Shown here piece after piece: positions 3,001 to 64,000 of a stretch of DNA of 64,000 nt. The notes under the pieces are model-generated. The model was not told the origin of the DNA and did no database searches. It saw only the letters and a list, made by a program, of their open reading frames with translations. This stretch comes from an uncultured bacterium. GTDB lineage: Bacteria; Omnitrophota; Omnitrophia; Omnitrophales; Aquincolibacteriaceae. A program made the translations under genes and the position numbers. The stretch is from NCBI GenBank assembly GCA_964385615.1, contig CAYLPP010000009.1:3854-67853 (forward strand), read 5' to 3'. Numbering within the stretch: position 1 is the first letter of the stretch; every line of letters begins with the position of its first letter.

Positions 3001-6000
3001 GGGTGTTTTGAGCGGCGACGAGCGAAGCCGCCTTCTTGCCCGTTTAGGAAAAGTTTTCGCGGATGAAGCGGAAGCCAAATCTTATTTTGAGGCACGGGGA
3101 TTCCTTAATGTTAAGGTCGAAAGACGCCAAGTGGGCGGAGAAGATTACTATTTCTTCGCGACTTTTCAAAATCCAGCGCGATCGGAAGTTCGGGCTTTGG
3201 AGCCTAGCCGGCGGGACGCTTTAATAACCGCCGCGGGTTTGGGTGCGTCGGCTCTTTTGACGGCTGTTTCGGGGGAAGCCGAAGGGGAAGAAATTAATTT
3301 GGGAGCCGAATGGGCCGGGGTGATTAAAAGCTTGCAGAGCGGAATCGAACTTCATCGAAACCGGTTTGGCGTGAACGGTCTTCTTGAAAATCAGATGGAG
3401 CCGGGGAGGGACAAGGATATCTCCTGGATCCGCGCGGGGGATATCGGTTTCAGCCTAAGTTCTCTAGTCATTCAGTATCTCAATGGAAATGAAACAGCCA
3501 AGACAGCGGCGCTTAAAATGATTCTTACGGCGCTTCAAACGCATGAACGTCTGGTTAAGGATTTCGGCCTGAAGATTGCCAAAGACGGGACCGCCGGGTA
3601 TGGCGCCGGCTTTGAGGGCGAACCGACAGGGTTACTGCCTGAAGTTTTGGGGCGCGACAAGACTTATTATAAAGCGGAGCCTGCCCGGGAGACAGGCATG
3701 ATCGAGTACGCGGCTTTTGACATGGCCCTGACGCATGAAAGGCTGATCACTTTGCAGGGAATTCTGGAAGATGAGTTAGCAAAAGTAAAAGGGAAGAGTC
3801 CGGCCCGGGAGAGATCTCTTGGCGAAATTCTGAAGGTTCTTAACAGGATTCTTGGCCAGGTTTCCTATCTTCCTTTCATAGACAAAGATGAAAAGCTTCA
3901 TCACAAAGTGCTGGTTTCTTCAAAAAAAGACAAAGAACCCAAGCTTACCGACGATTTAATTGACAACAAATACACGGAAGCCGTGGCGTTTCTCCCTTTG
4001 ATCGCTAGAGGGTATCTGGGGAAAAACGGTGAAAAAATTTGGGATGCCATGAAAGTCGAATGGCAGCTTCTTCCAGTGAGTGAATCGGAGAAAGTGCCGG
4101 TGATTAAAGGCGATAAAGAAGAAACCGCTTGGGCGGCTTTCTACGGGCATTTGCTGGGCGCGGCTAAATCGGCTCCCAAAACTTTAGGTTTGAGCGGTGA
4201 AAATTATACGCGCGCCGCGCTTTACGCCGCGAAAAAATACGGCCACAAAGCGGCGGGAAGCGCTCCTGGTACCGGATTGAAGGCGAATCAGTATCAGGCA
4301 TTTGGTATCCGCAACGCGGACTCGAACGATTTTTCGACGATTCCTTACGGGGTCTTTATGATGGCGCTTTCCGGCCGTGAAGGTGTGAAAAATTTAAAAG
4401 CGTTTTTGGCGGCCGTTAAAGCGGCGGGCGGGCTTTCCGCGCAGTACGGGCTTGTGGATTCTTACAATCCTAAAAATTTAAAACAGAATAACGGCAAGGT
4501 TATTTTGATGAATCAGGTTCTGATGCTGGAAGCTTTGAACGCGGAAAAACTCCGCCGTGAGACGCCTGCCGTGAAATTTACGGAAAAGAAACTGGCGGAA
4601 ACAGATGAGAAAAACCCTGTTCCCAAAAATCTGCTTCCCTCGAACGCCGCTCTTGTTGATTTAACAGCTGTCATTGTAAAAGAAAACAAGTCGGGCGCTC
4701 TGGGGGACGCGAAGCCTCCGGTGATTGAGGAGAAGAAAATGACCGTGAGCTTTTCCTCAGCGAAGGAAGGGGATTTGAGCGGCGCGTGGTTCGCGCTTCC
4801 GGCTTTCAAATTAGACGAAGGCCTCGCTGGACTTGAAGTTGCGCTGGCTGAAGGCGGAAAATTTCCGGCGGAATTAAAAATCGAATTCAAGGATGAAAAG
4901 AAAGCCGTTATTGGAGAAACGATTGTCACTTCTGACGAAATCAAAGCGGGAACCCTGAAGCTGGATATTACCAAAGTGATTCGGGCTTCAAAAGGTAAAA
5001 CCGTAAGCGAGGTTGTGATTTTTGTGACCAAGAAAGGCGAAGGTTCGTTTACGATCAATTCATTGAAGTTGACTCCGCGTTCGGAAGTGCGCACTCTTTC
5101 ATTAAGTGATGACGAACGCGAACTGCTTTTGAGCTTTTACCAGGATGTGCTTGCCAGAGCGCTGGAAATCGCGCGGGCAAAAACGGGGGACGCTTTCGCG
5201 GAAGCTTCCGCCGGAGTCTTTCAGAAGGCGATTAATTCTCTCGATGCGAAGAAAAACCAGCTGACTCGGACGGTTGGAACTTATTGGGCCATGCCGGATA
5301 TTGCACCTGAGGATCTTACGGATGCGGTCCGCGCGTCGGCGGGCAGTAGTAATGATCAGGCCGCGAACCAACTCTACGCGGCGGCTTATGAGATTTATGC
5401 CTCGGCTTACCGAGCGCTCGCCGATAAACGCCCGGTCTTCCGTTCTGAAGCCCGTATGGATTTTGCCCGCGTGGATGTCTTGATGAGGCAATTCGAAGAA
5501 AACGTCAGGGATGCGAGGCGGGCGGCGGAAGAAGGCCGTTTTGACGACGCCCGGAACGGTTTTGAAAAAGCGGCGGATGCTTATATTGAAGTTTCGAAAA
5601 TATTCAGCATGGGAAGGTTTTACGCCGACAAAGCCATGTTTCTGAACTGGCAGGAAAAAGTGGGCGGCACGCCTGTTTTTAATCCGGATCAGTTGAAGGA
5701 CTTTGATTTCAAATTTTCAAATGACCGAACCCGCGATCAGGATATTCGGCGGGTTCTGGTGAACGCGGCGCTTTTGTCCCTGGATGTCATTCGCAAACAG
5801 GGCGGCGGACTGGAGCTGACTGGACGGGTTTATGGCCAGGTCTCCGATGTCAGCGCCTTGAAGCCTGCTGATTTTTCCAGAATCGCGCGGGTCAGCAACG
5901 TGGCTTCGGACACTTACGAGTATCAGCATACACCGACCGGCGAAATTTATATCGTCAAGTTCCTCGGCCCCCGCGCCTTGCCGGAATTATTTGGGCAATG

Positions 6001-7642
6001 GCTGTTTCAGAGACTGGGTTTTTCAACCGTGGAAACGCATCTGCTGAATTTTAGCGGTCAGCCCGCCATCGTTATGAAAAAAATTCCGAATGTCGTGACG
6101 GTTTATGATTATCTGTACAGACAGCTTGGCGATCCCCGCATGTTTCAGAATGAGATTGTCGCAAACCGGCTCTTTCCCTCAGGGTACGCGAATATTTTAA
6201 AACAGTCCAAGCTCGCGGACATTCTAATCGGGTTGAAAGATGCTCATCTTCGCAACGTCCTGCTTCGGGTTGACGCCGAAGGGAATCTTCTTTCCGAAGC
6301 GCCGATTTTTATTGATAAAGAGCGGTCTCTCGGATATCAGACTGATTCAAGAACGGGGCAGGGCATACGGTTTGAACCCTACCAGCCGGCCGTAACACGG
6401 GAAAGGATCGATGCTGGTAACGATACGTTTAAACTGGGGCAGGGAGAACCTTTTTATTACCGGAACGCGAGAGTGAATGATCTAACGGAAACGGCGGAGA
6501 AAATCGCTCAGATTACCCCTGGGGAAGTTGACGCCGCAGTGCGGAAAATCACAGGAGATTTTGGGGGAGATAGGAATGATTTTCTCCCGGATCAGCTTCA
6601 GCCCGGAAAACTGGTGCCCGCTTTAAACACGGCGATCGCTTCCGTAAAGGCAATTTACGCTGTTCGTTCTGAAGTACGGCTGGCGCCGGCAGGAGGCGTT
6701 CAGGAAACAGCGGAAGAGGAAACGCTTCCCGGAATTCCTCTTAGATTTAGCGGTGTAGAATTGAAAGTCGGAATGGGATGGCTGGAAGCTCTTCTGGATG
6801 CCGGGAAAAAATGGCCGGCTGACACTCCGGTTATTTCCGTTTTGAGCGCCGGAATCGCTTATGCGGAAACACCTGCTGAATTGGAGCCGAAAGTTTTGAG
6901 GCTCGGAGATATCTGGATGAATTTGACGACGCCGGAGTCCGCGCAGGCGATTGCCGGTTTGGCCGCGCAGATGAAGGTTTCCGACACGCCTCTGGCGATG
7001 CTGACCGTGACGACGAATGAGCCCACGGATCTTCAGTCGCTTGCGGCCGCATCGATCTTGAATCCGAATTCATTTTCTGTCGTGATTTATCTTCTCCCTC
7101 AGGGAACCGCGCGCAGTGAAGTGCGCCGGGTTCAGGAAAAACTGGCGCCTGAAATTAAAAAAGTTCAGGCGTTTCAGACCACAAGCGGAATGATAGGAAA
7201 ACGCTTTCAGCTGATTGTGGCTCACCCGGCGGATGTGACCGGCCGTGTTCAGGAAGCTTCCCGGATGCTTTTCAGCCAGATGAAAAGTTCGGTCAAGGCG
7301 GTGCAGGACAGTGCGATGGATGCCTTTTTAGAGCGCTATTTCGTTCAGCTGATGATTGGTTCTGATTTGAATGTTTTGCAGGATTTAGTTCATCCCAAAG
7401 CAGCTCGGGTGCTTCGCTTGGAACTTGACGGAAAAGCTGCTGACGGCTCAAGGATGTCATCCGCCGCGATTGTGGTGCTGAGCAAGACAGGAACCGCGGA
7501 GGAGATCGACGCTGAAACCGCGGAGCTTCTCAATAAACGGGATCAGAAGCTGTTTGATATTATTCCAGATAAACTGCGGGCGTGGGAGAAAACGGTCGCA
7601 ATCGCGGTCGAGGCCGCGTTCAAGTTCGCGACCTCCGCTTAA
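1..7642 (+). CDS. Giant multidomain protein, 5' partial (frame open to window start; TTG at 29 is the first possible start). Contains a CheY-like receiver domain (aa ~575-700: ILIVEDE...LIILDNNL...PVVIYNS...GKL) and a PI3/PI4-kinase-like catalytic region (aa ~1965-2110: IVKF...GLKDAHLRNVLLRVDAEGNLL...IFIDKE). The remaining ~2000 aa have no recognisable domains.
   Basis: Continuous 7.6 kb ORF with no stop in frame 2 from nt 2. REC acidic-pocket and phospho-acceptor Asp pattern. Catalytic-loop-like D-x-H-x-x-N followed by LLxxDAEGNLL, close to the PI4K [22 protein letters not shown] block. Confidence 0.6.
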   Translation, partial: AGDVSSALLLTDAQSLDFHDALDFGEEADPAQFEDLKEAYRLEKSVSGFNSNVLVEIVGNAKTLLLWELEFLGATDIRIVKDPDNPKVHYVFFKWSYDGREESKTERKLKYTQETVLAKAGASLPYPVSQPVYLRKAGHLFGFPDLQSKAVVTFSSGVRLPDYKAVPGAQISGFTSDETILPSQRDYVNLKNAVVWEKVEKKGISRDKVKNMVGEWLRKPAMQNLFQAKDKVNGTEALTNAIAALLATPGKTQLTEPELETVLNQLTVPHRKLDKGKVKSALGYINTILSRSEARSVDFKDWNWQTGQPIVRNGREDLLVTLPLEGIRVSYADLERAGGLSLTLGAVSRAGAVLKVENNTLTVSQSDSTETFPAQLFVENDSENKAVILKGSRTKQFEVYLFQSDLTRLRDAVETAFAVELKDIPGADIPEIVKNGEGLNRLPQGRAVRIPLAGLRELRLAVGDMTARGSTLKYLLLDLNTGRIRYYGVLKDGKPSLLTSGVASLEQGAPSIDVVQADPLFQEARSELASPVALMNADIGNPHLRIRRDQSAVYVTDLSESGSWLFSSDIQTALSRSESRAEPVAPADAKILIVEDEVEMAEVVIETLVRAGALRENIKLVTSTREFTSEAVSGGYTLIILDNNLASIGMSGLQALKTMKSSKVEIGKDSKGPVVIYNSDENVSEGRAYADFALGKLARTAVIQSLFSQALRIAGERRSELRVGSDVLGIEGWQKNAADLVSESRGAPVSRGIGDLQIIEEMKTTLQVYAAEIEREEGNSGAPIQLLTVGLGPGHLEKALRGSFPAERFPITAVDPALDSVTSGKITASVPGLAILSKQAEQLAVSDLPATPAVIYGSFFLEYTDRDRTLEALKNISPPGARYAIVLHYKNSPEAQYRRELVREEAIYVQFLQVALEMLKSSKYKSALYNSIRKGEITFERSKIKKDVQEVLGMVAGNAGDRSALRKQLPGDIKRALSNYIRTVAQYAPFLAESDLYLPEGVLSGDERSRLLARLGKVFADEAEAKSYFEARGFLNVKVERRQVGGEDYYFFATFQNPARSEVRALEPSRRDALITAAGLGASALLTAVSGEAEGEEINLGAEWAGVIKSLQSGIELHRNRFGVNGLLENQMEPGRDKDISWIRAGDIGFSLSSLVIQYLNGNETAKTAALKMILTALQTHERLVKDFGLKIAKDGTAGYGAGFEGEPTGLLPEVLGRDKTYYKAEPARETGMIEYAAFDMALTHERLITLQGILEDELAKVKGKSPARERSLGEILKVLNRILGQVSYLPFIDKDEKLHHKVLVSSKKDKEPKLTDDLIDNKYTEAVAFLPLIARGYLGKNGEKIWDAMKVEWQLLPVSESEKVPVIKGDKEETAWAAFYGHLLGAAKSAPKTLGLSGENYTRAALYAAKKYGHKAAGSAPGTGLKANQYQAFGIRNADSNDFSTIPYGVFMMALSGREGVKNLKAFLAAVKAAGGLSAQYGLVDSYNPKNLKQNNGKVILMNQVLMLEALNAEKLRRETPAVKFTEKKLAETDEKNPVPKNLLPSNAALVDLTAVIVKENKSGALGDAKPPVIEEKKMTVSFSSAKEGDLSGAWFALPAFKLDEGLAGLEVALAEGGKFPAELKIEFKDEKKAVIGETIVTSDEIKAGTLKLDITKVIRASKGKTVSEVVIFVTKKGEGSFTINSLKLTPRSEVRTLSLSDDERELLLSFYQDVLARALEIARAKTGDAFAEASAGVFQKAINSLDAKKNQLTRTVGTYWAMPDIAPEDLTDAVRASAGSSNDQAANQLYAAAYEIYASAYRALADKRPVFRSEARMDFARVDVLMRQFEENVRDARRAAEEGRFDDARNGFEKAADAYIEVSKIFSMGRFYADKAMFLNWQEKVGGTPVFNPDQLKDFDFKFSNDRTRDQDIRRVLVNAALLSLDVIRKQGGGLELTGRVYGQVSDVSALKPADFSRIARVSNVASDTYEYQHTPTGEIYIVKFLGPRALPELFGQWLFQRLGFSTVETHLLNFSGQPAIVMKKIPNVVTVYDYLYRQLGDPRMFQNEIVANRLFPSGYANILKQSKLADILIGLKDAHLRNVLLRVDAEGNLLSEAPIFIDKERSLGYQTDSRTGQGIRFEPYQPAVTRERIDAGNDTFKLGQGEPFYYRNARVNDLTETAEKIAQITPGEVDAAVRKITGDFGGDRNDFLPDQLQPGKLVPALNTAIASVKAIYAVRSEVRLAPAGGVQETAEEETLPGIPLRFSGVELKVGMGWLEALLDAGKKWPADTPVISVLSAGIAYAETPAELEPKVLRLGDIWMNLTTPESAQAIAGLAAQMKVSDTPLAMLTVTTNEPTDLQSLAAASILNPNSFSVVIYLLPQGTARSEVRRVQEKLAPEIKKVQAFQTTSGMIGKRFQLIVAHPADVTGRVQEASRMLFSQMKSSVKAVQDSAMDAFLERYFVQLMIGSDLNVLQDLVHPKAARVLRLELDGKAADGSRMSSAAIVVLSKTGTAEEIDAETAELLNKRDQKLFDIIPDKLRAWEKTVAIAVEAAFKFATSA

Positions 7643-53350: not shown

Positions 53351-54133
53351 GTGCCTAGAAATTCTATGATTCGATTGGAGTGGATCTTTTTGGGAGTATT
53401 TGCCGGAGTCCTGGTTTCGGGATGTGCTGGTCCTTCCAAGACGATGCCAAGCTCTGGGATGGGCCCCATGACTTCCGTCACGGCTTCAACCGGCTTCGCG
53501 GGGGTTCCCCGCGATATGTACCACGTTGTCGGCCCCTCTGAAACACTCTGGCGTATCGCTAAAACTTACGATGTCGACATGGACACGCTTTTGCACGCCA
53601 ACCGTTTGGATGATCCGACCAAGATTAAAAAGGGGATGAAGCTTCTCATTCCCAACACGCTGGGCCCCCGCCCTGTCATTCCGCTTTATCCGGCCAGCCG
53701 GTGGAAGTATATCGTTATCCACCACACGGCTACGGAAGAGGGAGATGCTTTTACTATCGATCAGCTTCATCACAAACGCGGGTTCTGGAACGGTTTGGGA
53801 TACCATTTTCTTATTGATAACGGAACCGAAGGGAAAACGGACGGTCAGATTCAGGTGGGACCCCGGTGGATCAAACAGCAAGATGGCGCTCATGCGAACG
53901 CCGCGGGGATGAATGAGAAGGGGATCGGGATCGTCATTGTAGGGAATTTCAGTCAGACGCGCGTTACGGAGCGTGAACTCGACAGCTTGGCTTTTCTTGT
54001 TAAAACACTCATGAGTTACTATAAAATTCCCGCTTCAAACGTTATCCGCCATCGGGATGTTCCGGGGAAGAACACAGAGTGCCCGGGCAATCTCTTTCCC
54101 TGGACGGAATTTAAACACCGCCTCAACAGTTAA
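53351..54133 (+). CDS. LysM-domain N-acetylmuramoyl-L-alanine amidase (Amidase_2 / PGRP fold)
   Basis: LysM (YHVVGPSETLWRIAKTYDVDMDTLLHANRL) followed by the amidase_2 core (IVIHHTAT...GYHFLIDNG...HRDV...CPG). Confidence 0.8.
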   Translation: MPRNSMIRLEWIFLGVFAGVLVSGCAGPSKTMPSSGMGPMTSVTASTGFAGVPRDMYHVVGPSETLWRIAKTYDVDMDTLLHANRLDDPTKIKKGMKLLIPNTLGPRPVIPLYPASRWKYIVIHHTATEEGDAFTIDQLHHKRGFWNGLGYHFLIDNGTEGKTDGQIQVGPRWIKQQDGAHANAAGMNEKGIGIVIVGNFSQTRVTERELDSLAFLVKTLMSYYKIPASNVIRHRDVPGKNTECPGNLFPWTEFKHRLNS

Positions 54134-54134
54134 T

Positions 54135-55193
54135 TTATTCCTTCGATAAAATAATTTTGTAAAATTTAACGCCTGGGTTTGGCGCCGTGACGCGGAGAAG
54201 GTGCGGCCCTTGGTTGAGTGTGTTTAAAACATCATAAAGGGAATCAAAGCGAACTAAGACATAAGTTTTTCCTGCCTGACGGATTAAATCTCTTCCCCTG
54301 AGTTTCTTGTCGCCGACCGGCTGCCCATCCACGGTGATTTCAAGCGGAACAGGTGTTTCGCGGTCGACGCCTGCCAAAAGGCTGAGCGGCTGACCATTCC
54401 AATAGAATTCCAGAGACTCGCCTCCGTTCACATTCGTCGCGTAATCTTCCGCGAATTTCCATTTTCCACTCAGATAGAAATAGCCTTCTTTCTTTTCATC
54501 CGGCACTTTGAAGGTTTTTGGAATTTCCGCCAGGACCTGCTGAACGGGGTTTCCCAGGCGGAGAATTTGCTTATAACCCAGTGTTACGATTTCAAGTTGA
54601 GGAAGGCGGAGTTGAGGGTATTTTTCAATCGCTTCCGCGAGTTCCGGTTCGACTTCTTTTAAGATAAACCTCAGTTTTTGCTCTTGTTCCGGGAAAGTTT
54701 CTGATTCCGGCGGGGCGTATCGGATCCGGCCTCGCTTCCCGATGAAATAAACCCAGACCCCTTCAGGCGGATTATACGCTCTGAAAGTGAGGCCCTCACG
54801 GTCTTCACCAACGGGAAAAAGAAGCTTTAGTTTTCGGAATTTTTGTTTAAAAGCGACCAGGTCCTTTTCGAATTCATATTCGGGAGTAATCAGGGCAACA
54901 ACGCGTACACCGTCGGCGAAATACTTTTTATGCCACTCCGTCAGGATTTTAAATTTGAGCCAGGTTCTGGGGTCCGAGGGGCGGATAAAGGCCAAAATCG
55001 TCGTGTATCCGGTCAGTGAATCCCGGGTTGGGGGAGTTCCCCTCCAGTTCTCGATCCCCAGAAATTCCGCCATGCTTTCCCGGGTGTGAAGGGCGGTGTA
55101 CCCGGGCGAGGGTGTCAGGAGTACGGACAAAATAGCGAAGGCTGAAAATATTTTTTTCATTTTTTTATATTCGGCTAACCGGGGCTGATCCAT
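54135..55193 (-). CDS. Hypothetical secreted protein
   Basis: 352-aa ORF. The internal Met at 55160 gives a classical signal peptide (MKKIFSAFAILSVLLTPSPGYTA). No recognisable catalytic motif. Confidence 0.5.
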   Translation of the reverse strand: MDQPRLAEYKKMKKIFSAFAILSVLLTPSPGYTALHTRESMAEFLGIENWRGTPPTRDSLTGYTTILAFIRPSDPRTWLKFKILTEWHKKYFADGVRVVALITPEYEFEKDLVAFKQKFRKLKLLFPVGEDREGLTFRAYNPPEGVWVYFIGKRGRIRYAPPESETFPEQEQKLRFILKEVEPELAEAIEKYPQLRLPQLEIVTLGYKQILRLGNPVQQVLAEIPKTFKVPDEKKEGYFYLSGKWKFAEDYATNVNGGESLEFYWNGQPLSLLAGVDRETPVPLEITVDGQPVGDKKLRGRDLIRQAGKTYVLVRFDSLYDVLNTLNQGPHLLRVTAPNPGVKFYKIILSKE

Positions 55194-55235
55194 AGACTTA
55201 CGCTATCGAGGAAGCCTGTTCCCGGGGTTCGTTCA

Positions 55236-55265
55236 GTTGACAGCATTGAAAAACGTGATAAATTA
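55236..55265 (+). promoter_or_regulatory. Candidate sigma70-type promoter (TTGACA ... GATAAAT) in a 340-nt intergenic region
   Basis: TTGACA hexamer followed ~16 nt later by a TAAAT-containing -10-like element. Confidence 0.3.
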
Positions 55266-55474
55266 CCTACTGTTATGACGACACAAACGCTTAAAAACTC
55301 AATGAAGTCCATGAAAAAAGCTGTCTGCCGTATTCCGGCCGGCAAGGACATTCGTCCTATGTCCGCCGCCGTATGGCATGCCGCGCACGCGCTTTTTTAT
55401 TGCCGCGACATGGGCTTGAGGGGGATTTTAACGGTCTCATAACCGAAAATTCTAAACCAGTAACACCCGAAAAG

Positions 55475-55506
55475 CCCATGACTGCAATAGCGGTCATGGG
55501 TTTTTT
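55475..55506 (+). terminator. Strong intrinsic terminator (CCCATGACTG...CGGTCATGGG stem + TTTTTT)
   Basis: 10-bp stem (one mismatch) immediately followed by T6. It lies before the RBS of the next ORF, so it ends a separate upstream transcript. Confidence 0.65.
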
Positions 55507-55535
55507 GCTTTTAAAACCAAAAAGGAGGAAGACAA

Positions 55536-55768
55536 TGCAGTCCAGAACGGAAACAAGAAGGTTCGACAGAGAAAGGCCGGGGTTGTTCAGGGCCAACAGG
55601 GATCCAGTCAAGCTGACCGCCCTGCTGTACCTGAAAGAATGCCTGCTCAGAGAGCAGTACGAGGAATGCGCGGAAATCGTCCAGATTGCCCGGGAATTCG
55701 GGGCTTTGCCGGTAGAGATCCGCAGTGTTCTGGAGAACCCGGGCGGAGCCCTGGGTTTTAAGCGGTGA
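55536..55768 (+). CDS. Hypothetical small protein (77 aa)
   Basis: ATG preceded by an AAAAGGAGGAAG RBS 6 nt upstream. Its stop overlaps the GTG start of the next ORF. No recognised motif. Confidence 0.35.
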
Positions 55769-56280
55769 GCCGGGACCGAATGACTTCCTTTACGTGGAGG
55801 GCCGAAATGCTTAGAATGCCGTCTATGCGAAGCGGAAGTTATTCTGGTCTTGCGCTCGGGGCCTTGATGCTTGCAGGCGCCTGCGTTTGTCTGCACGCGG
55901 ACTTGGAACGTGTGGACGTGCGGGTGCAGTCGATTCGTGTGCAGCCTGGACGTCCCAGCGCGGACCAGCCGATCTCCGTTTACGCGCTGCTGCGTAACGC
56001 GGGAAGCGCGCAAGCTGGGAATATTTATATCACCGTGGAAATTCGCCGGGGAGAAGAGGTTGTCCGGAAAATTTCGGATATTCCCGTGCTTTCGGAGCTT
56101 CCGCGTTCCGGCATTGGTCTGTCAGTGCCGTTATCGGTTGGACAGCTTCCTGAAGGGGATTACAGGATTCGGGTCTGGGTAACGCCGTCTGAAGATGAAG
56201 GCGAGAATCGCGGAGCGTCTGTTCATTTACATGTTTTTGAAAAATCCAAAAGTTCGAGTACCGTTTATGGAAGCTATTAA
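55765..56280 (+). CDS. Hypothetical exported protein with CARDB-like beta-sandwich region
   Basis: Hydrophobic N-terminal segment (LALGALMLAGACVC), then DLERVDVRVQSIRVQPGRPSADQPISVYALLRNAGSAQAGNIYITVE resembling CARDB/Ig-like domains. Confidence 0.4.
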   Translation: MSRDRMTSFTWRAEMLRMPSMRSGSYSGLALGALMLAGACVCLHADLERVDVRVQSIRVQPGRPSADQPISVYALLRNAGSAQAGNIYITVEIRRGEEVVRKISDIPVLSELPRSGIGLSVPLSVGQLPEGDYRIRVWVTPSEDEGENRGASVHLHVFEKSKSSSTVYGSY

Positions 56281-56617
56281 AATTTTATCTTTATTCTGCG
56301 CAATTCACATGGTTCTGATTTCTCCGGCATTTTCAGCCGAGGAACAGAATAAAAAATCTTCCACACAGCAAATCGGAGGCCTTCTCTTTGATGTTGATGA
56401 GGGCGTTAAAGTGGAGCAGGGGCCGGGCGGAAGTGTTTACATGAAATCCAACCGGGAATATATGCAGTCAAAATTTAATGAGATTGAAGAACGCTTCAAA
56501 GATTTAGAACAGAGAATCTCTCTTCTTGAAGCCCAAAGCGGTTCACAGGGCGGTAAAACAGTTTCAGAGCCCGCTCCTCCTGCTGATAATTCCGGCCGTA
56601 AGGTGCTTCAGTCGTGA
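56264..56617 (+). CDS. Hypothetical small secreted coiled-coil protein
   Basis: Signal peptide MEAIKILSLFCAIHMVLISPAFSA and a coiled-coil segment. Start chosen at the internal Met. Confidence 0.35.
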   Translation, partial: FMEAIKILSLFCAIHMVLISPAFSAEEQNKKSSTQQIGGLLFDVDEGVKVEQGPGGSVYMKSNREYMQSKFNEIEERFKDLEQRISLLEAQSGSQGGKTVSEPAPPADNSGRKVLQS

Positions 56618-56940
56618 AGCTTACGGATATTCGCCCGGTCGGTGAAACGGAAATCCTGCTTAGCTGGGAAGACGGGCACCGCAGTCTTTATCCTTACCGG
56701 CTTCTGCGTTTTTTATGCCCCTGTGCCGGATGCGTGGATGAACATACAGGCCAGCGCACCATTCGAAAAGAAACGATTGCCGAAACCATCCGCATTTCTG
56801 ATTTTGCGCCGGTAGGACTTTACGGAATCAAGTTCCGCTGGAATGACGGCCATCAAACCGGGATTTACAGTTTTGATTATCTGCGGAAAATCTGTCCATG
56901 TGAAACCTGCAGTTCCGCTATCTTGAAGGAGATTTCATGA
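56614..56940 (+). CDS. DUF971 (gamma-butyrobetaine hydroxylase-like N-terminal domain) protein
   Basis: LSWEDGHRSLYPYRLLRFLCPCAGC ... RWNDGHQTGIYSFDYLRKICPCETC: duplicated CPCxxC halves typical of DUF971. Confidence 0.65.
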   Translation: MKLTDIRPVGETEILLSWEDGHRSLYPYRLLRFLCPCAGCVDEHTGQRTIRKETIAETIRISDFAPVGLYGIKFRWNDGHQTGIYSFDYLRKICPCETCSSAILKEIS

Positions 56941-57665
56941 AAATTCTTTACGCCGGAGACAGCCCGGTCGGCGGAGCCGCGAACTATCTCCTGGGTGTTC
57001 TTGGTTCGATGAAGGCTCGAGTGACGCATCTTCCGCCTTCCGAAAAATTGACGCGGAAAATATTAAGCGAACGCTTTGACGCCATTCTTCTCAGTGATTT
57101 TTCCCGTAAAAATCTTCCGGCTGACGCGGAAAAGCTTCTGGTGAAACAGGTGCAGTCCGGGACAGGGTTGATGATGATCGGTGGTTGGGGATCTTTCTCC
57201 GGTCCTTTCGGCGGTTGGAAGGGGAGCCAAGTTGAAAAGCTTCTTCCCGTCTCCTGTTTAAACCGGGATGACCGCACGAATTTTACGGGAGGAGCTTCCG
57301 CCGGATTAGTTTCGCCCCATCCTTCCGTCAAAGGAGTTTCTTTCTCGCAGGCGCCGGTTATTTGCGGTATGAATCTCGTCCTTCCCAAAAAAAATAGCAA
57401 GTTAGTCCTCGCGGCGCGGCGAATTCTCTCTGATGGGAAAAAGGCCAGGCTGGAAAGTAAGGCGTTTCCGCTTTTAGTCACGGGCAACGCCGGCGGGCGG
57501 ACCGCCGCGTTTACCACTGATTTCGCGCCCCACTGGTGCGGGGGGCTTGTGGATTGGGGCGGAGACACTCAAACCCTTCCGGTGAACTCAAAAATCCGCA
57601 TTCAGGTTGGAAAACGGTATGTTCAGCTGATAACCTCTCTCGTGAGCTGGCTCGCTGGCCGGTAA
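56937..57665 (+). CDS. Hypothetical protein, possibly class-I glutamine-amidotransferase-like fold
   Basis: KILYAGDSPVGGAANYL ... FDAILLSDF ... GLMMIGGWGSF pattern resembles GATase1-like/ThuA-like proteins. No catalytic Cys identified. Confidence 0.35.
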   Translation: MKILYAGDSPVGGAANYLLGVLGSMKARVTHLPPSEKLTRKILSERFDAILLSDFSRKNLPADAEKLLVKQVQSGTGLMMIGGWGSFSGPFGGWKGSQVEKLLPVSCLNRDDRTNFTGGASAGLVSPHPSVKGVSFSQAPVICGMNLVLPKKNSKLVLAARRILSDGKKARLESKAFPLLVTGNAGGRTAAFTTDFAPHWCGGLVDWGGDTQTLPVNSKIRIQVGKRYVQLITSLVSWLAGR

Positions 57666-57721
57666 TTTGACTCAAGTTTTCCTCTCTTTTTTCGATACAT
57701 CATCTAAGAAAGAGAGGCGTT

Positions 57722-57934
57722 ATGATTAACAACATGGTTTTATCCACCGAAATCGAGTGGATCGGTTACGAAAGTAAAAACCGTATGCTTCAAGTTGAGT
57801 TTATCGAAGGTCAAACCTACCAGTATCAGAATGTTCCGGAAACCGTTTATGAGCACTTTTTAAGCGCGGATTCTCATTGCGTTTACTTTGATTCGGAAAT
57901 CAAAGGGAGATACGCTTACCGCCGTATCCGTTAA
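57722..57934 (+). CDS. KTSC domain protein
   Basis: 70 aa; IEWIGYESKNRMLQVEFIEGQTYQYQNVPETVYEHFLSADS...GRYAYRRIR matches the KTSC domain consensus. Confidence 0.65.
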   Translation: MINNMVLSTEIEWIGYESKNRMLQVEFIEGQTYQYQNVPETVYEHFLSADSHCVYFDSEIKGRYAYRRIR

Positions 57935-57983
57935 ATTTTAATTTAAAGTTGATTGGGCCATGGTTTGAAGATAGAATTCAGCC

Positions 57984-58544
57984 ATGGCCCTTCTTCATTC
58001 CGATCCGCTCAAACCCGGCACGCCGGCGCCTTTTTTTGAACTCCCCTCAGTTGACGAAAAAAAATACTCGCTTCATGATTTTAAGGGGAAGCCTCTCGCT
58101 GTTCTTTTTATCTGCAATCATTGTCCTTACGTAAAGGCTGTTGAAGACCGCATTCTTCAGTTAGTTCGCGATTATGAAAAGCGGGGAGTGGCCTTTGCCG
58201 CGATTTGTTCGAATGATCCCACGGATTATCCAGACGACAGCCCTGCAAGTCTTAAAGCCCGTTGGCTTGAAAAAAAATACGGCTTTCCGTATTTGATTGA
58301 TGCTTCTCAGGATACGGCGCGCGCTTTCGGCGCGGTCTGCACTCCTGATATTTTTGTTTACGATAAGGATCATACTTTGGCTTACCGGGGCCAGATCGAC
58401 AATAGCTGGAAAGACCCTCTTCAAGTCACCCGCCATGATCTTCGTGAAGCTCTTGACGCTTTGCTTGCGGGCAATAAGCCTTCCCCTCAGCAAATTCCCT
58501 CCATGGGTTGTTCGATCAAGTGGTCCAAAACTAGCAAGAATTAG
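57984..58544 (+). CDS. Thioredoxin-fold protein (AhpC/TSA-like thiol-disulfide oxidoreductase)
   Basis: APFFELPSVDEKKYSLHDFKGKPLAVLFICNHCPYVK, with a CxxC-type motif (CNHC) in a redoxin context. Confidence 0.65.
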   Translation: MALLHSDPLKPGTPAPFFELPSVDEKKYSLHDFKGKPLAVLFICNHCPYVKAVEDRILQLVRDYEKRGVAFAAICSNDPTDYPDDSPASLKARWLEKKYGFPYLIDASQDTARAFGAVCTPDIFVYDKDHTLAYRGQIDNSWKDPLQVTRHDLREALDALLAGNKPSPQQIPSMGCSIKWSKTSKN

Positions 58545-58696
58545 CATTTCTAGTATTAAGTAGCCTTTTCTAGCATTTTCCTCGTAGTTCTCTCTATAGA
58601 CTTGACCTCGTGTTATACTTTTATAAAAAGATTTAAAAAGTTTTCAACCAAATAGAAAACGACTCAAACATTGAGCGGAGCGGACGGCAAAATCCA

Positions 58697-61600
58697 ATGA
58701 AGAACAGATATCTCATCCGCGTGATTGCGGTGGGAACTCTTTTGACTTTTTGCTCTACCGGCGCAGGCTGGGGGGAACCCGCTCCCTCTGTCGAAGGTCC
58801 GCCGATTCCCGCGTTTGATATTTCAAAATTTCACGTTCCCTCCGAAATTGCCAATCTTCAGCAAGTCCATTCAGCCGGCGCCAAACGCACGGTGATTTAT
58901 GTTCAGGACGCGCATGGAGTTTTAGACGCTCAGCAAAACATTCAAAAGCTGATTCAGTTATTTCAAGATGATTATGGAATCAGGGTTTTCGGGCTGGAGG
59001 GGAGCAAAGAAGATCTTGATCCGCTAATCCTTCGGGCCTTTCCTGATGCTTTCATCCGTGACAAAGTTTTACGCCAATACCTAGACCGCGGAGAATTGAC
59101 CGGTGCGGATTTTGCCGCGATTACCAATCCGGCCAAGTCGGTGTTTCACGGTTTAGAAGATTGGAATCTTTATCAGGAAAACTATCTGGCTTACCTGCAA
59201 GCGTCGGAATTGAAAGCCAAAATTCTGGAGAAAATCGAAATTGTCCGGGCGGATCTCGCGAAAGAGCGTGTTCGGATTTACTCGCCGCAATTCAACCGCT
59301 TTCACGAAAGTGTTGAATCTTTCGAGGATGAAAAGATAGGTCTCCTCGAGCTTCTTAAATTTCTGGGTGAATGCGAATCCGAGCTTCGCCCTGAAGACCG
59401 GAAAATTACTAAAACCGCCGCGCCTCATTTGTTCGGCTTGATGAACGCGGTTTTTAGCTCTAAGTCGGGAGAGGGTGAAATCAACGCGGAAGTGGGGAAG
59501 GTGGCCGAAAAGTTTCAAAATATTTTCCGTTTTAAGCCTAATCTGCAGAAGGCACAGGAGTTTAATACCCGCTATCAGGGGTTTAGAACCGGAGCCGAAG
59601 ACGCCGGAACTTTTTTGAAGTTTCTTGTGGATGCCGGCAAAGAGATCGGGTATGTGCCGGACTTGAGTTTTTCCATGAAGCAACTATTGGGCGAAGCGGA
59701 GACGCTTTCCATGATCAAGGGAACGCTTTTATTTGACGAGTTGGATCAGGTTATCCGCGATTACCGGAATTATTACGCTGTGACTCCGGAAGAGAAAGCA
59801 TTGTCACTAAAGTACGAACGGCTCAGGATTGTTAAAACAATGGCTTCCCTCGAATTAACCCGGGATCAGATGGATGAATTTGAGAAAGAACCTGAGGCCT
59901 ACCTGACGCTTTTTGACCAGGAAGAGGAGTGGATGCAGCCCGCGCTCCGGTTTTATGACGCCGCGCTGAGACGTGATGACGCGTTTCTTAGAAAAATTGA
60001 TTCCATGTTTGAAAAGGAAAAAACGGATGTCATTGTTGTTTTGACTGGGGGCTTTCACTCAGGCGGTCTCGAGCGCAACCTTGAGAAAAACGGCTATAAC
60101 TTCGCGGTACTGACTCCCAAGATGGACTCTCTCAACGGTCAGGAAAATTATCAAAAGGTCATGAGCGGTGACCTCTCTTACAAAGAATTCCTGAATAAAA
60201 GTTTCTATGACGCGTTTGTGAGTCACTCCACCCTTGCTTTGGCCAGAGAGCTCAGCAAACCGGACTTTTTTCAGGCTTTAAAACAATGGCGGGACCAGGT
60301 GATTCGGGAGCTGGCGAATGAAGGCCGGCTGACGCAAGCCGGAGATTACAGCGTCTACATTGACAGGCTCGTTTCTGTTTATAAGGAAAGATATGGAGAC
60401 ACGGAAAAAATTTCAAGAACCGAAAATGAAATTCTCAGGGATATCGAAACTGTTCTCGCGAATTTTAACGAGCGTCTGAAGATTAAAATTCGGGACCGTT
60501 TTCAATCGGAGTTCCGGGATTTCCGTGCTGGGGCTGAACAATTTCGCCAAGCGGGCACCCTGAATTCCGAAAATCTGCAGACACTCTCCGCGCAAATTGA
60601 TGCCCGCAAAGCCGGAGTCAATACGATCCTTCCTCTTGGGAATAAGGAATATGATCCGGTGACCGCTTATATTTCCGGAAAAGTAAATTTGACGGAAGCT
60701 CAGGAAAGGTTAACTCAGACGGCGAAATCTGAGCTCCGCTCTGACGCGGAGTCGCGTCTTTCACGCTTGGTGGGTGCCGTGCGCAAACCGCAGGTACCGC
60801 GTTCCGAAGCCCCCTTGTCTGTCGTAAGCCCGGAACTTGATCCATTGCCTGAAAGTACTTCGACTGAAGCGAAAAGTGCCGCACTTTTTAACTCATTAAC
60901 AACCGGTTCAACAATCACAGAACTTGTTCCCGCTTTTAAAAATATCGGGATTACGGTCCGCGACCCAAAAGATTTGAGGCCTGGTTTCGCCGCGCTCTAC
61001 TTTGAACTGCTTGATGAGTCGGGTGCTCCGATTAGAACGGATTATCGGGGCCTGACGGTTAACGCCCATGTTTTTATTGAGGGGAGTCTGGCAGAAGACA
61101 GTGTTCACATTACCGCCGCGACGCTTGGAGCTCCGAAGAGCCGCGAGCGTGTTCTTATCTCGCTTGAGCTGATGCGTATCAGCACGCGCTATGTTTCGAG
61201 ATTAGGCCGTTGGAAGAACCTGGAATTGACCGCCTTGAATCCGCAAAGCCGGAAATTTCTCAGTGAAAATCTACAGGCACTTATGAAACCTGGTTATACG
61301 ATTCAAATCCCGGAAGACGCTGAAAATTACAAAATTCCGTTTGAGAACATGAATCTCGATGAGCCGATCGCCGTGGCGCGTTCTGAACAGCGGGGTTTGT
61401 CTCTGGAAGACCGTCAGGCTAATGCTGAAGCAGCGCTTCGGACAATCGCGATTGTCGCGACTTCGTCAGAAGGTTCTGGAATCGGAGAAGTTTCTCGCCG
61501 GGCCAGCCAGTATTTGGGGATGCTGGCAAACGCGCCGAATGATGCCGTAAGGCTAAAAGTTTTACCTGGGATTGAAGCTTGGCTTCGTGAACAAAGAGTC

Positions 61601-63172
61601 CAGAATCAGCCCCGGTCCATTCGTGAAGCGCTGATCTTTTTAGGCGGATCCTCAGATCAAAGAGTTACCGGTCTCAACCGTCTTATTGAATGGATTCGCA
61701 TTGACCCCGTTACCCGCCAAGTGAACGCGGGGGTTGAACAGAACCTGCAGGGAATTGAGACAGAAGTCGGCGGGCGGCTGCTGGATATCCTTCTGGAATC
61801 GGTTAATAATCCTGACGTTTTCCCCGCGGGCGATTTGATTCGGGTGCTGGCGGTACTTGATACTTTGCCGCAGTTTCGCAATGCTTTTGCCCAAGATTCC
61901 GCCCGGCTTGATGATATTGCTCAGCAATTGGCGGACGCTTCTTTTGATGGAAATGAAAACGCGCAGATTTTAGCCGTAGCCTTTTCAAAACTGATTTTGT
62001 TCACGGATGCTTTTAACAAACAGAGATCCATCTTTGAAACCATGCTCAAAGTTCCAGCTCAGGATGTTCTTATTAAAAAAACAGGTTCAGACGTCCTCAC
62101 CAATTTGGATGCCCGCGCGAGGTCCGAAGTTCGTCAGGGAACACCTGTGATTGAGCCCTCTGCTTCTCCGGTCTCTTTGTCGCGCTTGCTCGAGGCCCCC
62201 GCGGTACAGAATCTTCTTCGGGAAGGGGATGTCGACGGCGCCCTGCAGAGGGTTGAGACCGCGGGAAATGAGACGGTTGATGGGGTCACTCAGACACTCG
62301 AAGCTCGTACGCGGAGAATCGTCGACGCACTTCGCCAGTCCGGAAACTCCACGGCGGTCATTGGCAATGATAGTTTCCCGGAAACGCTCGCGAGTGAATA
62401 CGGTCCGGTTGTCGAATCAGGGGATATTGACGGTCTGACAGCGGAGATTCGATTAACGCCATATCTCAAATTTACAGCCTCGTTGCAGTCTGAAACGGCT
62501 GTGCCGGTGGATTCAAAGAAAGTAGCGGACTTCAGAGCCCGTCTTTATGCCTATGCCGCGGCAACGCTTAACAAAGATGAAACTCTGGTCATGAATATCA
62601 GCGATAAATCCGACGTTGAGCCCGCTGCCAACGCTCTGAAAAATCTTGCGGCTCCCGAAGTCGGAGTTTTGGGCCGCCTGGTTATTATTTATGACAGCAA
62701 TGTTCCTTTAAAACAAAAACTCTGGAGCTTTATTCCTAACCGGAGCTTTGTTCCCGTAAAAACCGGCAGTGAAGTGGAAACAGTGGCTGAAACCGCGAGA
62801 CGGGAAAAGGGGATGGCCGGAGAGAATGTGCCCATTGTCCTGACGAGTCTTATCGATTTGGAAAAACTGACGGATCCGGCGGTTCGTGAGCTTCTGGCCA
62901 CGCTTTTAAGCTCTCTAAACAGCGGGGATATGAAGCAACTTTTGGTAGAGACTGCGGTTGTTATCGCGATGCGGGTTAAACAGCTCTCTGCCGAGGAACG
63001 GCGCAACTTCAGGGAAGACCCCAAGGCTTTTGCCGGCTTCCTGCGAAAAGAGGGGTTTGAGGACGCGATTGCCGATAGCATCGGCTTCGGCGACAAGGGC
63101 TTCCTCTCGATTCAGATCGGCAAGTTCGTCACGGCCTTCCGCTCAGAGATCCGGGCCGCCCAGTCCGCGTAA
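58697..63172 (+). CDS. Giant secreted hypothetical protein (1491 aa). N-terminal ~450 aa may have a TIKI/TraB/ChaN-like fold.
   Basis: Signal peptide (IRVIAVGTLLTFCSTGAGWG). Two GxxH-type motifs (VIYVQDAHGV; DVIVVLTGGFHSGG) with spacing reminiscent of the TraB/GumN/ChaN superfamily. The remaining ~1000 aa are unrecognised. Confidence 0.55.
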   Translation: MKNRYLIRVIAVGTLLTFCSTGAGWGEPAPSVEGPPIPAFDISKFHVPSEIANLQQVHSAGAKRTVIYVQDAHGVLDAQQNIQKLIQLFQDDYGIRVFGLEGSKEDLDPLILRAFPDAFIRDKVLRQYLDRGELTGADFAAITNPAKSVFHGLEDWNLYQENYLAYLQASELKAKILEKIEIVRADLAKERVRIYSPQFNRFHESVESFEDEKIGLLELLKFLGECESELRPEDRKITKTAAPHLFGLMNAVFSSKSGEGEINAEVGKVAEKFQNIFRFKPNLQKAQEFNTRYQGFRTGAEDAGTFLKFLVDAGKEIGYVPDLSFSMKQLLGEAETLSMIKGTLLFDELDQVIRDYRNYYAVTPEEKALSLKYERLRIVKTMASLELTRDQMDEFEKEPEAYLTLFDQEEEWMQPALRFYDAALRRDDAFLRKIDSMFEKEKTDVIVVLTGGFHSGGLERNLEKNGYNFAVLTPKMDSLNGQENYQKVMSGDLSYKEFLNKSFYDAFVSHSTLALARELSKPDFFQALKQWRDQVIRELANEGRLTQAGDYSVYIDRLVSVYKERYGDTEKISRTENEILRDIETVLANFNERLKIKIRDRFQSEFRDFRAGAEQFRQAGTLNSENLQTLSAQIDARKAGVNTILPLGNKEYDPVTAYISGKVNLTEAQERLTQTAKSELRSDAESRLSRLVGAVRKPQVPRSEAPLSVVSPELDPLPESTSTEAKSAALFNSLTTGSTITELVPAFKNIGITVRDPKDLRPGFAALYFELLDESGAPIRTDYRGLTVNAHVFIEGSLAEDSVHITAATLGAPKSRERVLISLELMRISTRYVSRLGRWKNLELTALNPQSRKFLSENLQALMKPGYTIQIPEDAENYKIPFENMNLDEPIAVARSEQRGLSLEDRQANAEAALRTIAIVATSSEGSGIGEVSRRASQYLGMLANAPNDAVRLKVLPGIEAWLREQRVQNQPRSIREALIFLGGSSDQRVTGLNRLIEWIRIDPVTRQVNAGVEQNLQGIETEVGGRLLDILLESVNNPDVFPAGDLIRVLAVLDTLPQFRNAFAQDSARLDDIAQQLADASFDGNENAQILAVAFSKLILFTDAFNKQRSIFETMLKVPAQDVLIKKTGSDVLTNLDARARSEVRQGTPVIEPSASPVSLSRLLEAPAVQNLLREGDVDGALQRVETAGNETVDGVTQTLEARTRRIVDALRQSGNSTAVIGNDSFPETLASEYGPVVESGDIDGLTAEIRLTPYLKFTASLQSETAVPVDSKKVADFRARLYAYAAATLNKDETLVMNISDKSDVEPAANALKNLAAPEVGVLGRLVIIYDSNVPLKQKLWSFIPNRSFVPVKTGSEVETVAETARREKGMAGENVPIVLTSLIDLEKLTDPAVRELLATLLSSLNSGDMKQLLVETAVVIAMRVKQLSAEERRNFREDPKAFAGFLRKEGFEDAIADSIGFGDKGFLSIQIGKFVTAFRSEIRAAQSA

Positions 63173-63267
63173 GCTCGTAATAAATTCTTTGACTGGAAAT
63201 TTCTTTTCCTTTACACTCCAAACACTAAAATTTATTTTTTTAACCCTCAATTTGAGAGTGTAAAACC

Positions 63268-64000
63268 ATGAGCCGTTTTAAGACCCCCTTAACCATTTTT
63301 GCCATTCTCGCGGGCACCGGAATTCTTCTGGCGCTTGCCTCGTTTACTCCCAAGCAGATTATCGCGACCCTGATTTTCCTGACCATTATCTGCGGAACGC
63401 TCTTCTATTGGAAATTCCGGCTCTCCTTCGCGTTCGCGGGGCTGGCAATCCTATTGGGCGCTAATCTTCTTGATCTTCCTCACGTGATTGAGTTCGCGGG
63501 GCTGGATATCATCCTGTTTTTAGTCGGCATGATGACCATTATCGGATTTTTGGAAGAGAACCATTTCTTTGAGTATTTAGTAGCCAAGGTGGTGGATGCT
63601 GTCGGCGAAAAGCCTTACCTGCTGATGGGGATTCTGATGGTTCTTTCCACTTTCTTCGCGGCTCTTGTGGATGAGGTGACTTCAATTCTTTTCATGATGT
63701 CGACCATGTTCCATATCACCAAGCGCTACAAGGTTAACCCTGTGCCGTTCCTGCTTATGATTGTTTTCGCGACGAATATCGGAAGCAGCGCGACCGCGGT
63801 GGGTAACCCCATCGGCGTTATGATTGCCCTGCGCGCCGGGCTGACTTTCGCGGATTTCCTCCGCTGGGCTGCTCCGATCTCCGTTGTCGCTCTGATTCTG
63901 ACCATCATCCTTTGCTTTATTCTTTTCCGGGCTCAGTTTACTGAATTGAAAGAACGGATGGCCAAGAAGGGGAATGAACCCCATGAATTGGCTCATGTTC
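63268..64000 (+). CDS. Ion transporter of the ArsB/NhaD (CitMHS) permease superfamily, 3' partial
   Basis: Multiple TM helices; LFMMSTMFHITKRYKVNPVPFLLMIVFATNIGSSATAVGNPIGVMIA is typical of ArsB/NhaD-family permeases. The ORF runs off the window end. Confidence 0.7.
   Translation, partial: MSRFKTPLTIFAILAGTGILLALASFTPKQIIATLIFLTIICGTLFYWKFRLSFAFAGLAILLGANLLDLPHVIEFAGLDIILFLVGMMTIIGFLEENHFFEYLVAKVVDAVGEKPYLLMGILMVLSTFFAALVDEVTSILFMMSTMFHITKRYKVNPVPFLLMIVFATNIGSSATAVGNPIGVMIALRAGLTFADFLRWAAPISVVALILTIILCFILFRAQFTELKERMAKKGNEPHELAHV

Follow-up and report, generated by a model that had tools for sequence, protein, structure and literature searches.

A widespread N-terminal head module, probably of the Tiki superfamily, in a putatively exported protein of an uncultured Omnitrophota bacterium

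The gene and its N-terminal head

The DNA considered here, hereafter the window, is a stretch of 64,000 nucleotides from an uncultured bacterium of the Omnitrophota (GenBank assembly GCA_964385615.1, contig CAYLPP010000009.1, positions 3,854 to 67,853). Near its end lies a complete open reading frame (ORF; 58697..63172, forward strand, as are all parts of the gene described below), which begins with ATG and runs uninterrupted for 1,491 codons and a stop codon; the N-terminal portion of its product, the head, is the subject of this report. An earlier note on this DNA had described the ORF as 4.5 kb in length and free of overlap with either neighbour, both of which were confirmed, and had credited it with an AT-rich promoter region of its own. 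The 149-bp gap on the 5' side (58548..58696), presumed to hold the promoter and ribosome-binding site, is indeed AT-rich (GC content 0.349 vs 0.501 for the ORF and 0.295 for the 95-bp gap downstream, 63173..63267); the promoter itself stays a presumption, as a scan of this gap for the sigma-70 consensus returned no promoter-like site. Two such sites were recognized in the downstream gap, preceding the next gene. The protein had also been described as lacking repeats and recognizable domains, and accordingly self-BLAST of the 1,491 residues revealed no internal repeats and searches of the whole protein against Pfam, NCBIfam and PDB sequences (phmmer) returned nothing above threshold. Two matches of the whole protein, Chlamy_scaf (E = 0.019) and 7dkh (E = 0.34), were dismissed as chance-level.

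Residues 1-26 (58697..58774; MKNRYLIRVIAVGTLLTFCSTGAGWG, followed by E27) have the appearance of a signal peptide, with a basic n-region, a short hydrophobic h-region and small residues at positions -1 and -3. The segment divides into MKNRYLIR, VIAVGTLLTF and CSTGAGWG as its n-, h- and c-regions; it holds three basic residues, a hydrophobic stretch of approximately 14 residues and small residues ahead of E27, a layout that agrees with that of Sec signals (basic n-region, h-region of 7-15 residues, small -3/-1 residues). Beyond it, no 19-residue segment of the protein has a Kyte-Doolittle value above 1.6 and no transmembrane segment was found, which together uphold, as a prediction, the clear signal peptide of the earlier note. 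Homologs present AXA-type sites (TWA/Q, AMA/QP and GFA/QP, the slash marking the site), and a comparable hydrophobic N-terminal segment occurs in 132 of 159 family representatives, 129 of which also have a Lys or Arg upstream of it; these representatives were drawn from 50%-identity clusters and also served for the counts of residue conservation given below. The window protein thus fits a cleaved Sec signal and would be exported.

The architecture of the head was predicted with AlphaFold2 from an alignment of 21 sequences, with a mean predicted local distance difference test score (pLDDT) of 81 overall and 84-96 in the core blocks. The signal region is modelled as a helix (residues 2-25) followed by a segment of low pLDDT, a disordered linker of residues ~26-39. 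The N-terminal half of the core (residues 40-168; 58814..59200; pLDDT 84-96), which is kept in all homologs, has strands at 52-58, 65-71, 97-100 and 149-152 that alternate with helices. At the end of strand 65-71 is the first motif, Q70-D71-A-H73-G74 (QDAHG; 58904..58918), a candidate catalytic or metal-binding D-x-H, while E101-G102 (58997..59002), at the end of strand 97-100, provides a candidate partner for H73 in a His-Glu pair, 28 residues further on. The two halves of the core are separated by an insertion of approximately 235 residues (169-404; 59201..59908) modelled as helices only, with pLDDT mostly 75-95, and lying within an all-helical stretch that spans residues 156-441; the insertion occurs in all homologs and has few conserved positions and no invariant one. 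The C-terminal half (residues 405-500; 59909..60196; pLDDT 89-95) comprises helix 410-441, which bears the invariant R426 (59972..59974), strand 445-451, helix 452-464 and strand 468-474. The second motif, G451-G-F-H454-S-G-G457 (GGFHSGG; 60047..60067), is found at the end of strand 445-451. A helical extension (residues 501-640; 60197..60616; WRDQVIR..L..EGR), modelled with helices between 503 and 639 at pLDDT 55-86, follows and is kept among closer relatives: for the nine homologs nearest to the window protein, BLAST alignments extend to residues 556-672, and the profile match described below continues through position 627 in most of the best 150 family members.

Ten residues are invariant in all 159 representatives, namely H73, Q79, E101, Y159, R426, G452, F453, H454, P474 and Y485, and two more are nearly so (D71 in 154 of 159, E154 in 157). 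The pair of GxxH-type motifs singled out in the earlier note lie where it had placed them (residues 70-74 and 451-457) and rank above all other sites in conservation within a module of approximately 450 residues, whose core agrees with the bounds of 40-480 it had proposed; the separation of their histidines is 381 residues, not the ~360 it had estimated. The predicted core is an alpha/beta domain in which parallel strands end in the polar groups D71-x-H73, E101, E154 and G-G-F-H454, with R426 on the preceding helix. In our reading of the model, the conserved residues would sit at the C-terminal ends of strands or the starts of helices, as do the active sites of doubly wound alpha/beta enzymes.

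A word-indexed search returned 26 homologs, all of them large (894-2,579 residues) and from metagenome-assembled genomes labelled Omnitrophota, Verrucomicrobiae, Elusimicrobiota, Endomicrobiia and Chlamydiota. With the sole exception of the closest relative (P0002), BLAST similarity was limited to their N-terminal ~480-670 residues. A profile (A1) of the N-terminal 640 residues of 21 sequences, including the window protein, was searched against 1.84 billion cluster representatives and matched 10,310 of them at E ≤ 1e-3, 9,159 at E ≤ 1e-10 and 7,363 at E ≤ 1e-30; the score of the window protein itself against A1, 681.5 bits, is circular, this protein being one of the 21 from which the profile was built. 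Among the best 150 of the 10,310 matches, protein length ranged from 536 to 7,984 residues with a median of 2,651. The head lies at the extreme N-terminus in every one of the 159 representatives (median start at residue 8, maximum 125). Two outcomes that the earlier note had held would count against its proposal were thereby not encountered: the protein is no ORFan, its homologs being abundant, and in relatives the reading frame is not interrupted but continuous, and usually longer.

Representative genomes in GTDB held four genomic relatives, all from Candidatus Omnitrophota. The locus of one homolog (GCA_975752635.1, CDKOEM010000011.1, 1-21772) has three very large genes in a row, encoding proteins of 7,293, 1,923 (P0005) and 11,560 residues, of which the first crosses the start of the locus and the last its end; the latter two are separated by genes for a deoxyhypusine-synthase-like protein and for a CitMHS transporter. 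Both P0005 and its 11,560-residue neighbour open with the head (E = 4e-100 for the latter, in which the insertion is shorter), which identifies the head as a module that recurs at the start of large and giant proteins and has several paralogs per genome, and means that the window protein has its head in common with proteins of up to 11,560 residues. Neither Pfam nor NCBIfam contains a model for this module, and the searched passages of two preprints on Omnitrophota giant proteins (bioRxiv 10.1101/2023.11.21.568195 and 10.64898/2026.06.07.730766) make no mention of a shared head, and the second contains neither the term Tiki nor the term TraB; on these grounds it was classed as a new family. 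Judged from sequence, heads of this kind make up a very large and hitherto undescribed family, whose members stand at the start of large and giant proteins, for the most part from Candidatus Omnitrophota. The window protein conforms to its definition in the N-terminal position of the head, the full set of invariant residues and the helical insert between the core halves, and is an ordinary-sized (small) member of it.

Relationship of the head to the Tiki superfamily

The earlier note had proposed a TIKI/TraB/ChaN-like N-terminal module, and the tests directed at this superfamily all lean the same way, each of them weakly. When 21 full heads were scanned singly against Pfam, the weak matches included PF04187 (ChaN; two members, jointly the most frequent), PF01963 and PF05139. 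The scan was extended to 27 cores from which the insertion had been deleted (the head minus residues 169-404); PF04187 then ranked first, matching 6 of the 27 (best E = 2e-4, 21.9 bits, or E ~5e-3 once corrected for 27 sequences), PF01963 ranked second (2 of 27) and PF05139 appeared further down (1 of 27). Every ChaN match places the segment from R426 to GGFH454 at positions ~144-204 of the 213 in PF04187. With NCBIfam, the top family for the cores was TIGR00261 (traB), at a sub-threshold E = 5.6e-4.

Comparison of profiles by hhalign gave a concordant picture. A core profile of 158 sequences, aligned with one made from E. coli YbaP (annotated as a TraB family protein) and its relatives, yielded P = 0.0068 and paired R426 with R228 of YbaP (HQRN) and GGFH454 with GALH252 (VGALHLYG); the insert-deleted profile A2 against the YbaP (TraB) profile yielded P = 0.0034 over the LEGA...FPD block. 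None of 150 column shuffles (13.8 +/- 2.3) came up to the real score of 25.2, nor did the reversed alignment, at 13.0. A search of 350,542 PDB chains with Foldseek, a check that had been suggested earlier for the head, returned no significant match; at rank 7 was 3B55 (E = 0.9, TM-scores 0.13/0.19), which is Bcr135, of the erythromycin-esterase family within the TIKI superfamily (PMC6254334).

In members of this superfamily, an alpha/beta fold surrounds a five-stranded, mainly parallel central sheet with helices, and a catalytic set of two His and two Glu residues comprises an E/D-x-H behind the first core strand, a Glu ~26-28 residues further on and a second His within a GxxH motif (PMC6254334). 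It is typified by E3900, H3902, E3930 and H4030 of RRSP, with H85 and E113 as the corresponding pair known from Bcr135 (PMC6254334). The same layout is found in the head as D71-x-H73, E101 (+28) and G-G-F-H454, at least as read from its alignment. The D/E-x-H ... E(+28) ... H arrangement is identical in Bcr135 (of the Ere family, PF05139), RRSP and the head, the distance from the first His to its Glu partner being 28 residues in RRSP (H3902/E3930), Bcr135 (H85/E113) and the window protein (H73/E101) alike. With the TraB/PrgY/GumN group (PF01963, TIGR00261; YbaP, Enterococcus PrgY/TraB, vertebrate TIKI1/2) the head has in common the conserved order H, E, E, R and GxxH, represented by H73, E101, E154, R426 and H454 against H41, E67, E159, R228 and H252 of YbaP, with spacings of 28 vs 26 residues from His to Glu and 28 vs 24 from Arg to His.

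The head departs from these known systems in several respects. Unlike the small proteins of the TraB family (~250-500 residues), it has the ~235-residue helical insertion, placed after the third strand and ahead of the Arg helix, and a helical extension of ~140 residues, and it is fused to tails of up to thousands of residues. PrgY, as TIKI, is located outside the cytoplasm behind a signal or anchor. The window protein would likewise be extracytoplasmic behind its signal or anchor, in the manner of membrane-tethered TIKI (PMC12329661). ChaN (Cofac_haem_bdg, PF04187, annotated as belonging to the Tiki superfamily; PDB 2G5G) is the best-scoring known model for the head cores; unlike a full ChaN domain, the head aligns to the C-terminal third of PF04187 only, and ChaN is annotated as haem-binding, not as an enzyme. 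RRSP offers a precedent for a Tiki-fold hydrolase built into a giant exported protein of many domains (MARTX), where it is an internal effector, in contrast to the universal N-terminal opener that is the head; the window protein has no macrolide or Ras-related context. Taking the convergence of these sub-threshold signals together, the earlier proposal is supported as likely: the core is quite probably a true, if highly divergent, Tiki-superfamily domain, and the new family, within the bounds of the libraries and papers searched, is most likely an architectural variant inside that known superfamily.

The variable tail and the gene neighbourhood

Beyond the head, residues 641-1491 (60617..63169) form a tail with no Pfam domain and to which only P0002 aligns. 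That protein (2,252 residues, from a Logan assembly) aligns with the window protein at both ends and has approximately 760 extra residues in its middle, among them unannotated sequence predicted to be FHA-less; identity across the tail is 28% for residues 665-1150 and 43% for residues 1208-1491 (62318..63169), the latter sub-region being the best conserved part. An AlphaFold2 model of the tail from the two sequences had a pLDDT of 38 and was unusable for a fold search; even at this low confidence, it suggests mixed strand and helix content for residues 1208-1491. A tblastn search of four Omnitrophota loci produced matches to the head only, a pattern scan of metagenome contigs found no tail relatives, and the tail of P0005 does not align with that of the window protein. 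Among 20 relatives, the domains found in the tails are unrelated (PPDK, sigma-70, GH77/GDE amylo-1,6-glucosidase, methyltransferase, receiver, SNF2, Nudix, metallophosphatase and FHA); besides replacement, large insertions and deletions seem to shape the tails. The ~850-residue tail of the window protein is thus private and lineage-specific, with no assignable function. A further hydrophobic segment is present in 13% of family members shorter than 1,500 residues vs 88% of those longer than 5,000.

Parallels with the giant proteins already recognized in this phylum, the 'Archaeovorins' and Dockerin-type proteins, can be drawn from the searched passages of the same two preprints, the later of which, based on complete genomes, catalogues Pfam architectures and topology (bioRxiv 10.64898/2026.06.07.730766). 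Besides the phylum, the giants and the tails of head relatives have in common a similar domain repertoire (PPDK, methyltransferase, Nudix, receiver and sugar enzymes), and the classes distinguished among long Omnitrophota proteins, with a signal peptide only (short) or a signal peptide plus transmembrane segments (longer), resemble the topology of the head family. By the descriptions in those passages, the window protein itself falls outside the giants (≥10,000 or >30,000 residues), with 1,491 residues and no SecA-DEAD, C39, dockerin, TSP3 or transmembrane helices. In the passages concerned, the N-terminal regions of full-length giants are stated to "generally lack identifiable domains," their cleavage points are given as unknown and C39 or S8 peptidases are suggested as processors (bioRxiv 10.1101/2023.11.21.568195).

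A gene for a transporter of the CitMHS/Na-sulfate-symporter type adjoins the ORF downstream (63268-64000, forward strand) and runs off the end of the window. A CitMHS gene is also found downstream of P0005, which is therefore probably a positional ortholog of the window protein; this was the only conserved synteny seen, and no conserved, functionally linked neighbourhood emerged from the relatives' loci compared.

The region upstream (53351-58544) is rich in envelope and redox genes, which encode a LysM plus Amidase_2 protein (53351-54133), a thioredoxin-like protein (54135-55193, reverse strand), a GBBH-like_N/DUF971 protein (56614-56940), a GATase1-like protein (56937-57665) and an AhpC/TSA protein (57984-58544). 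An AhpC-TSA/thioredoxin gene is also present upstream of another homolog, P0012. Within the region, two forward-strand ORFs with no Pfam match (55765-56280 and 56195-56617, the second with a signal-like N-terminus) overlap by 86 bp in different frames, and their start codons may be mis-assigned. Another very large ORF occupies the opposite end of the window (29-7642, forward strand); it encodes at least 2,537 residues and runs off the window start, such that its N-terminus lies outside, and its visible part has no similarity to the window protein or to the 26 homologs. Cumulative GC skew climbs monotonically over the 64 kb, and the forward strand carries almost every long ORF, consistent with a single replichore and a strong gene-strand bias.

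Competing explanations and a proposed role

The explanation that best accounts for these observations, and which is on balance likely, is that of a Sec-exported protein with a constant, Tiki-type hydrolase-like head and a variable tail. A number of findings weigh against it. No Tiki-family model was matched at its curated cut-off: the best score, 21.9 bits, compares with a gathering threshold of 27.7 for PF04187, against which the window core itself attains 12.8 bits (E = 0.12), while for PF01963 and TIGR00261 the window protein gave no match and the two relatives' cores among the 27 remained below threshold in Pfam (E = 0.011). When PDB sequences were searched with profile A1 of the head, with A2 of the insert-deleted core and with a third profile made from the C-terminal half (A6), no Tiki structure was recovered, only helical or Rossmann-like noise; a genuine TraB profile, used as a control, likewise found none, and so little weight attaches to this negative. 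In the Foldseek search the TM-scores to 3B55 were below 0.2 and the best-ranked chains were helical noise, an outcome attributed to the long helices of the insert, which draw coiled-coil matches. Shuffling in blocks of 12 columns attained the real hhalign score in 5 of 150 cases, indicating that the signal is concentrated in short motifs; global hhalign modes returned no match; and the register of the N-terminal half is ambiguous, hhalign pairing E101 (LEGA) with the central ELEGA of YbaP rather than with E67, which lies 26 residues after the first His. Moreover, many relatives' tails hold typically cytoplasmic domains, which is not easily reconciled with full export, and not all members of the superfamily are enzymes, ChaN being haem-binding by its Pfam entry and PMT a member that lacks the catalytic motif (PMC6254334). 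Several of these points, namely the sub-threshold matches, the low TM-scores, the block shuffles and the ambiguous register, together with the readiness of the C-half profile to catch generic Rossmann-like 'VVaGG' segments (E ~0.2-1), would be expected if the head were instead a new alpha/beta fold unrelated to Tiki, its GxxH, LEG and R motifs having arisen by convergence or as chance likenesses within a generic strand-loop-helix architecture. This we consider unlikely, given that the top-ranked families include four models from a single superfamily, drawn from two independent libraries, that PF04187 and TIGR00261 each lead a list (of 24,736 and 18,950 models, respectively), that an Ere-family structure is in the Foldseek top 10 and that the residue order H-E-E-R-H and two spacings agree with YbaP, Bcr135 and RRSP.

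A head with the Tiki/ChaN fold need not be an enzyme; it might bind a ligand such as haem, a metal or a cofactor, or serve as an envelope anchor that tethers or orients large exported proteins. The first place of ChaN among the known families, the invariant Y159 and Y485 which, with the two histidines, could bind a ligand, the precedent of PMT, and the logic of a handle that is implied by a constant N-terminal module ahead of a variable tail are all in keeping with such a role. It is nonetheless rather improbable, as the residues that are fully invariant are those of the 2His/2Glu site of active Tiki enzymes at the same spacing, and non-catalytic members such as PMT typically lose them (PMC6254334). 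The notion that the ORF is an artefact, whether through fusion of several genes, through faulty assembly or as an open frame that does not code for protein, could draw on the tail, with its one relative and its unfoldable model, and on the failure to find a sigma-70-like promoter upstream. It is scarcely credible: at 50% GC, chance cannot give an open frame of 4.5 kb; GC content at third codon positions is equal in head and tail (0.522 and 0.521), which speaks against a chimera or a fusion; an NCBI assembly contains a protein that is 100% identical (P0001), encoded on a contig of 106,617 bp; the head runs on into even longer tails in relatives; and both ends of the protein align to P0002. Artefactual gene fusion is thus essentially excluded.

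If the head is indeed a Tiki-type hydrolase, it would be the first part of the protein to be exported and would take up its fold on the outer side of the membrane. There, its His/Glu constellation, perhaps aided by a metal ion, may activate water for the hydrolysis of a peptide or ester bond outside the cytoplasm; by analogy with TIKI, TraB/PrgY, RRSP and the Ere enzymes (PMC6254334, PMC12329661), we infer that the head could be catalytic. Its task would be to process, mature or anchor, at the cell envelope, the polypeptide to which it belongs or sister large proteins. Such a role is favoured because the head would always be exported first and its position and ubiquity are independent of the cargo, leaving the tail free to vary; a stand-alone metabolic role is less likely. 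The boldest form of this proposal, that the head is a universal, self-acting maturation hydrolase that trims the polypeptide behind it, or sister giants, at the outer membrane face, is a long shot. Were it correct, thousands of large and giant genes of the Omnitrophota would encode polyproteins that are split into separate enzymes, and the head would supply the processing activity that has long been missing, as well as a sequence marker by which to catalogue the whole class of genes.

The value of the finding lies mainly in the head module it reveals, and less in the single gene of the window. The giant genes of the Omnitrophota are a recognized gap in knowledge, and one profile that matches more than 10,000 clusters, with an N-terminal position and an unvarying, hydrolase-like set of residues in each of the proteins examined, provides a marker with which to find, classify and delimit such genes in fragmented assemblies. 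It also offers a concrete, mutable candidate for a processing or anchoring step. As a probable Tiki-type family, it would add a large new branch to a superfamily already known to comprise Wnt-inactivating proteases, pheromone-shutdown proteins, macrolide esterases and a MARTX effector, among others.

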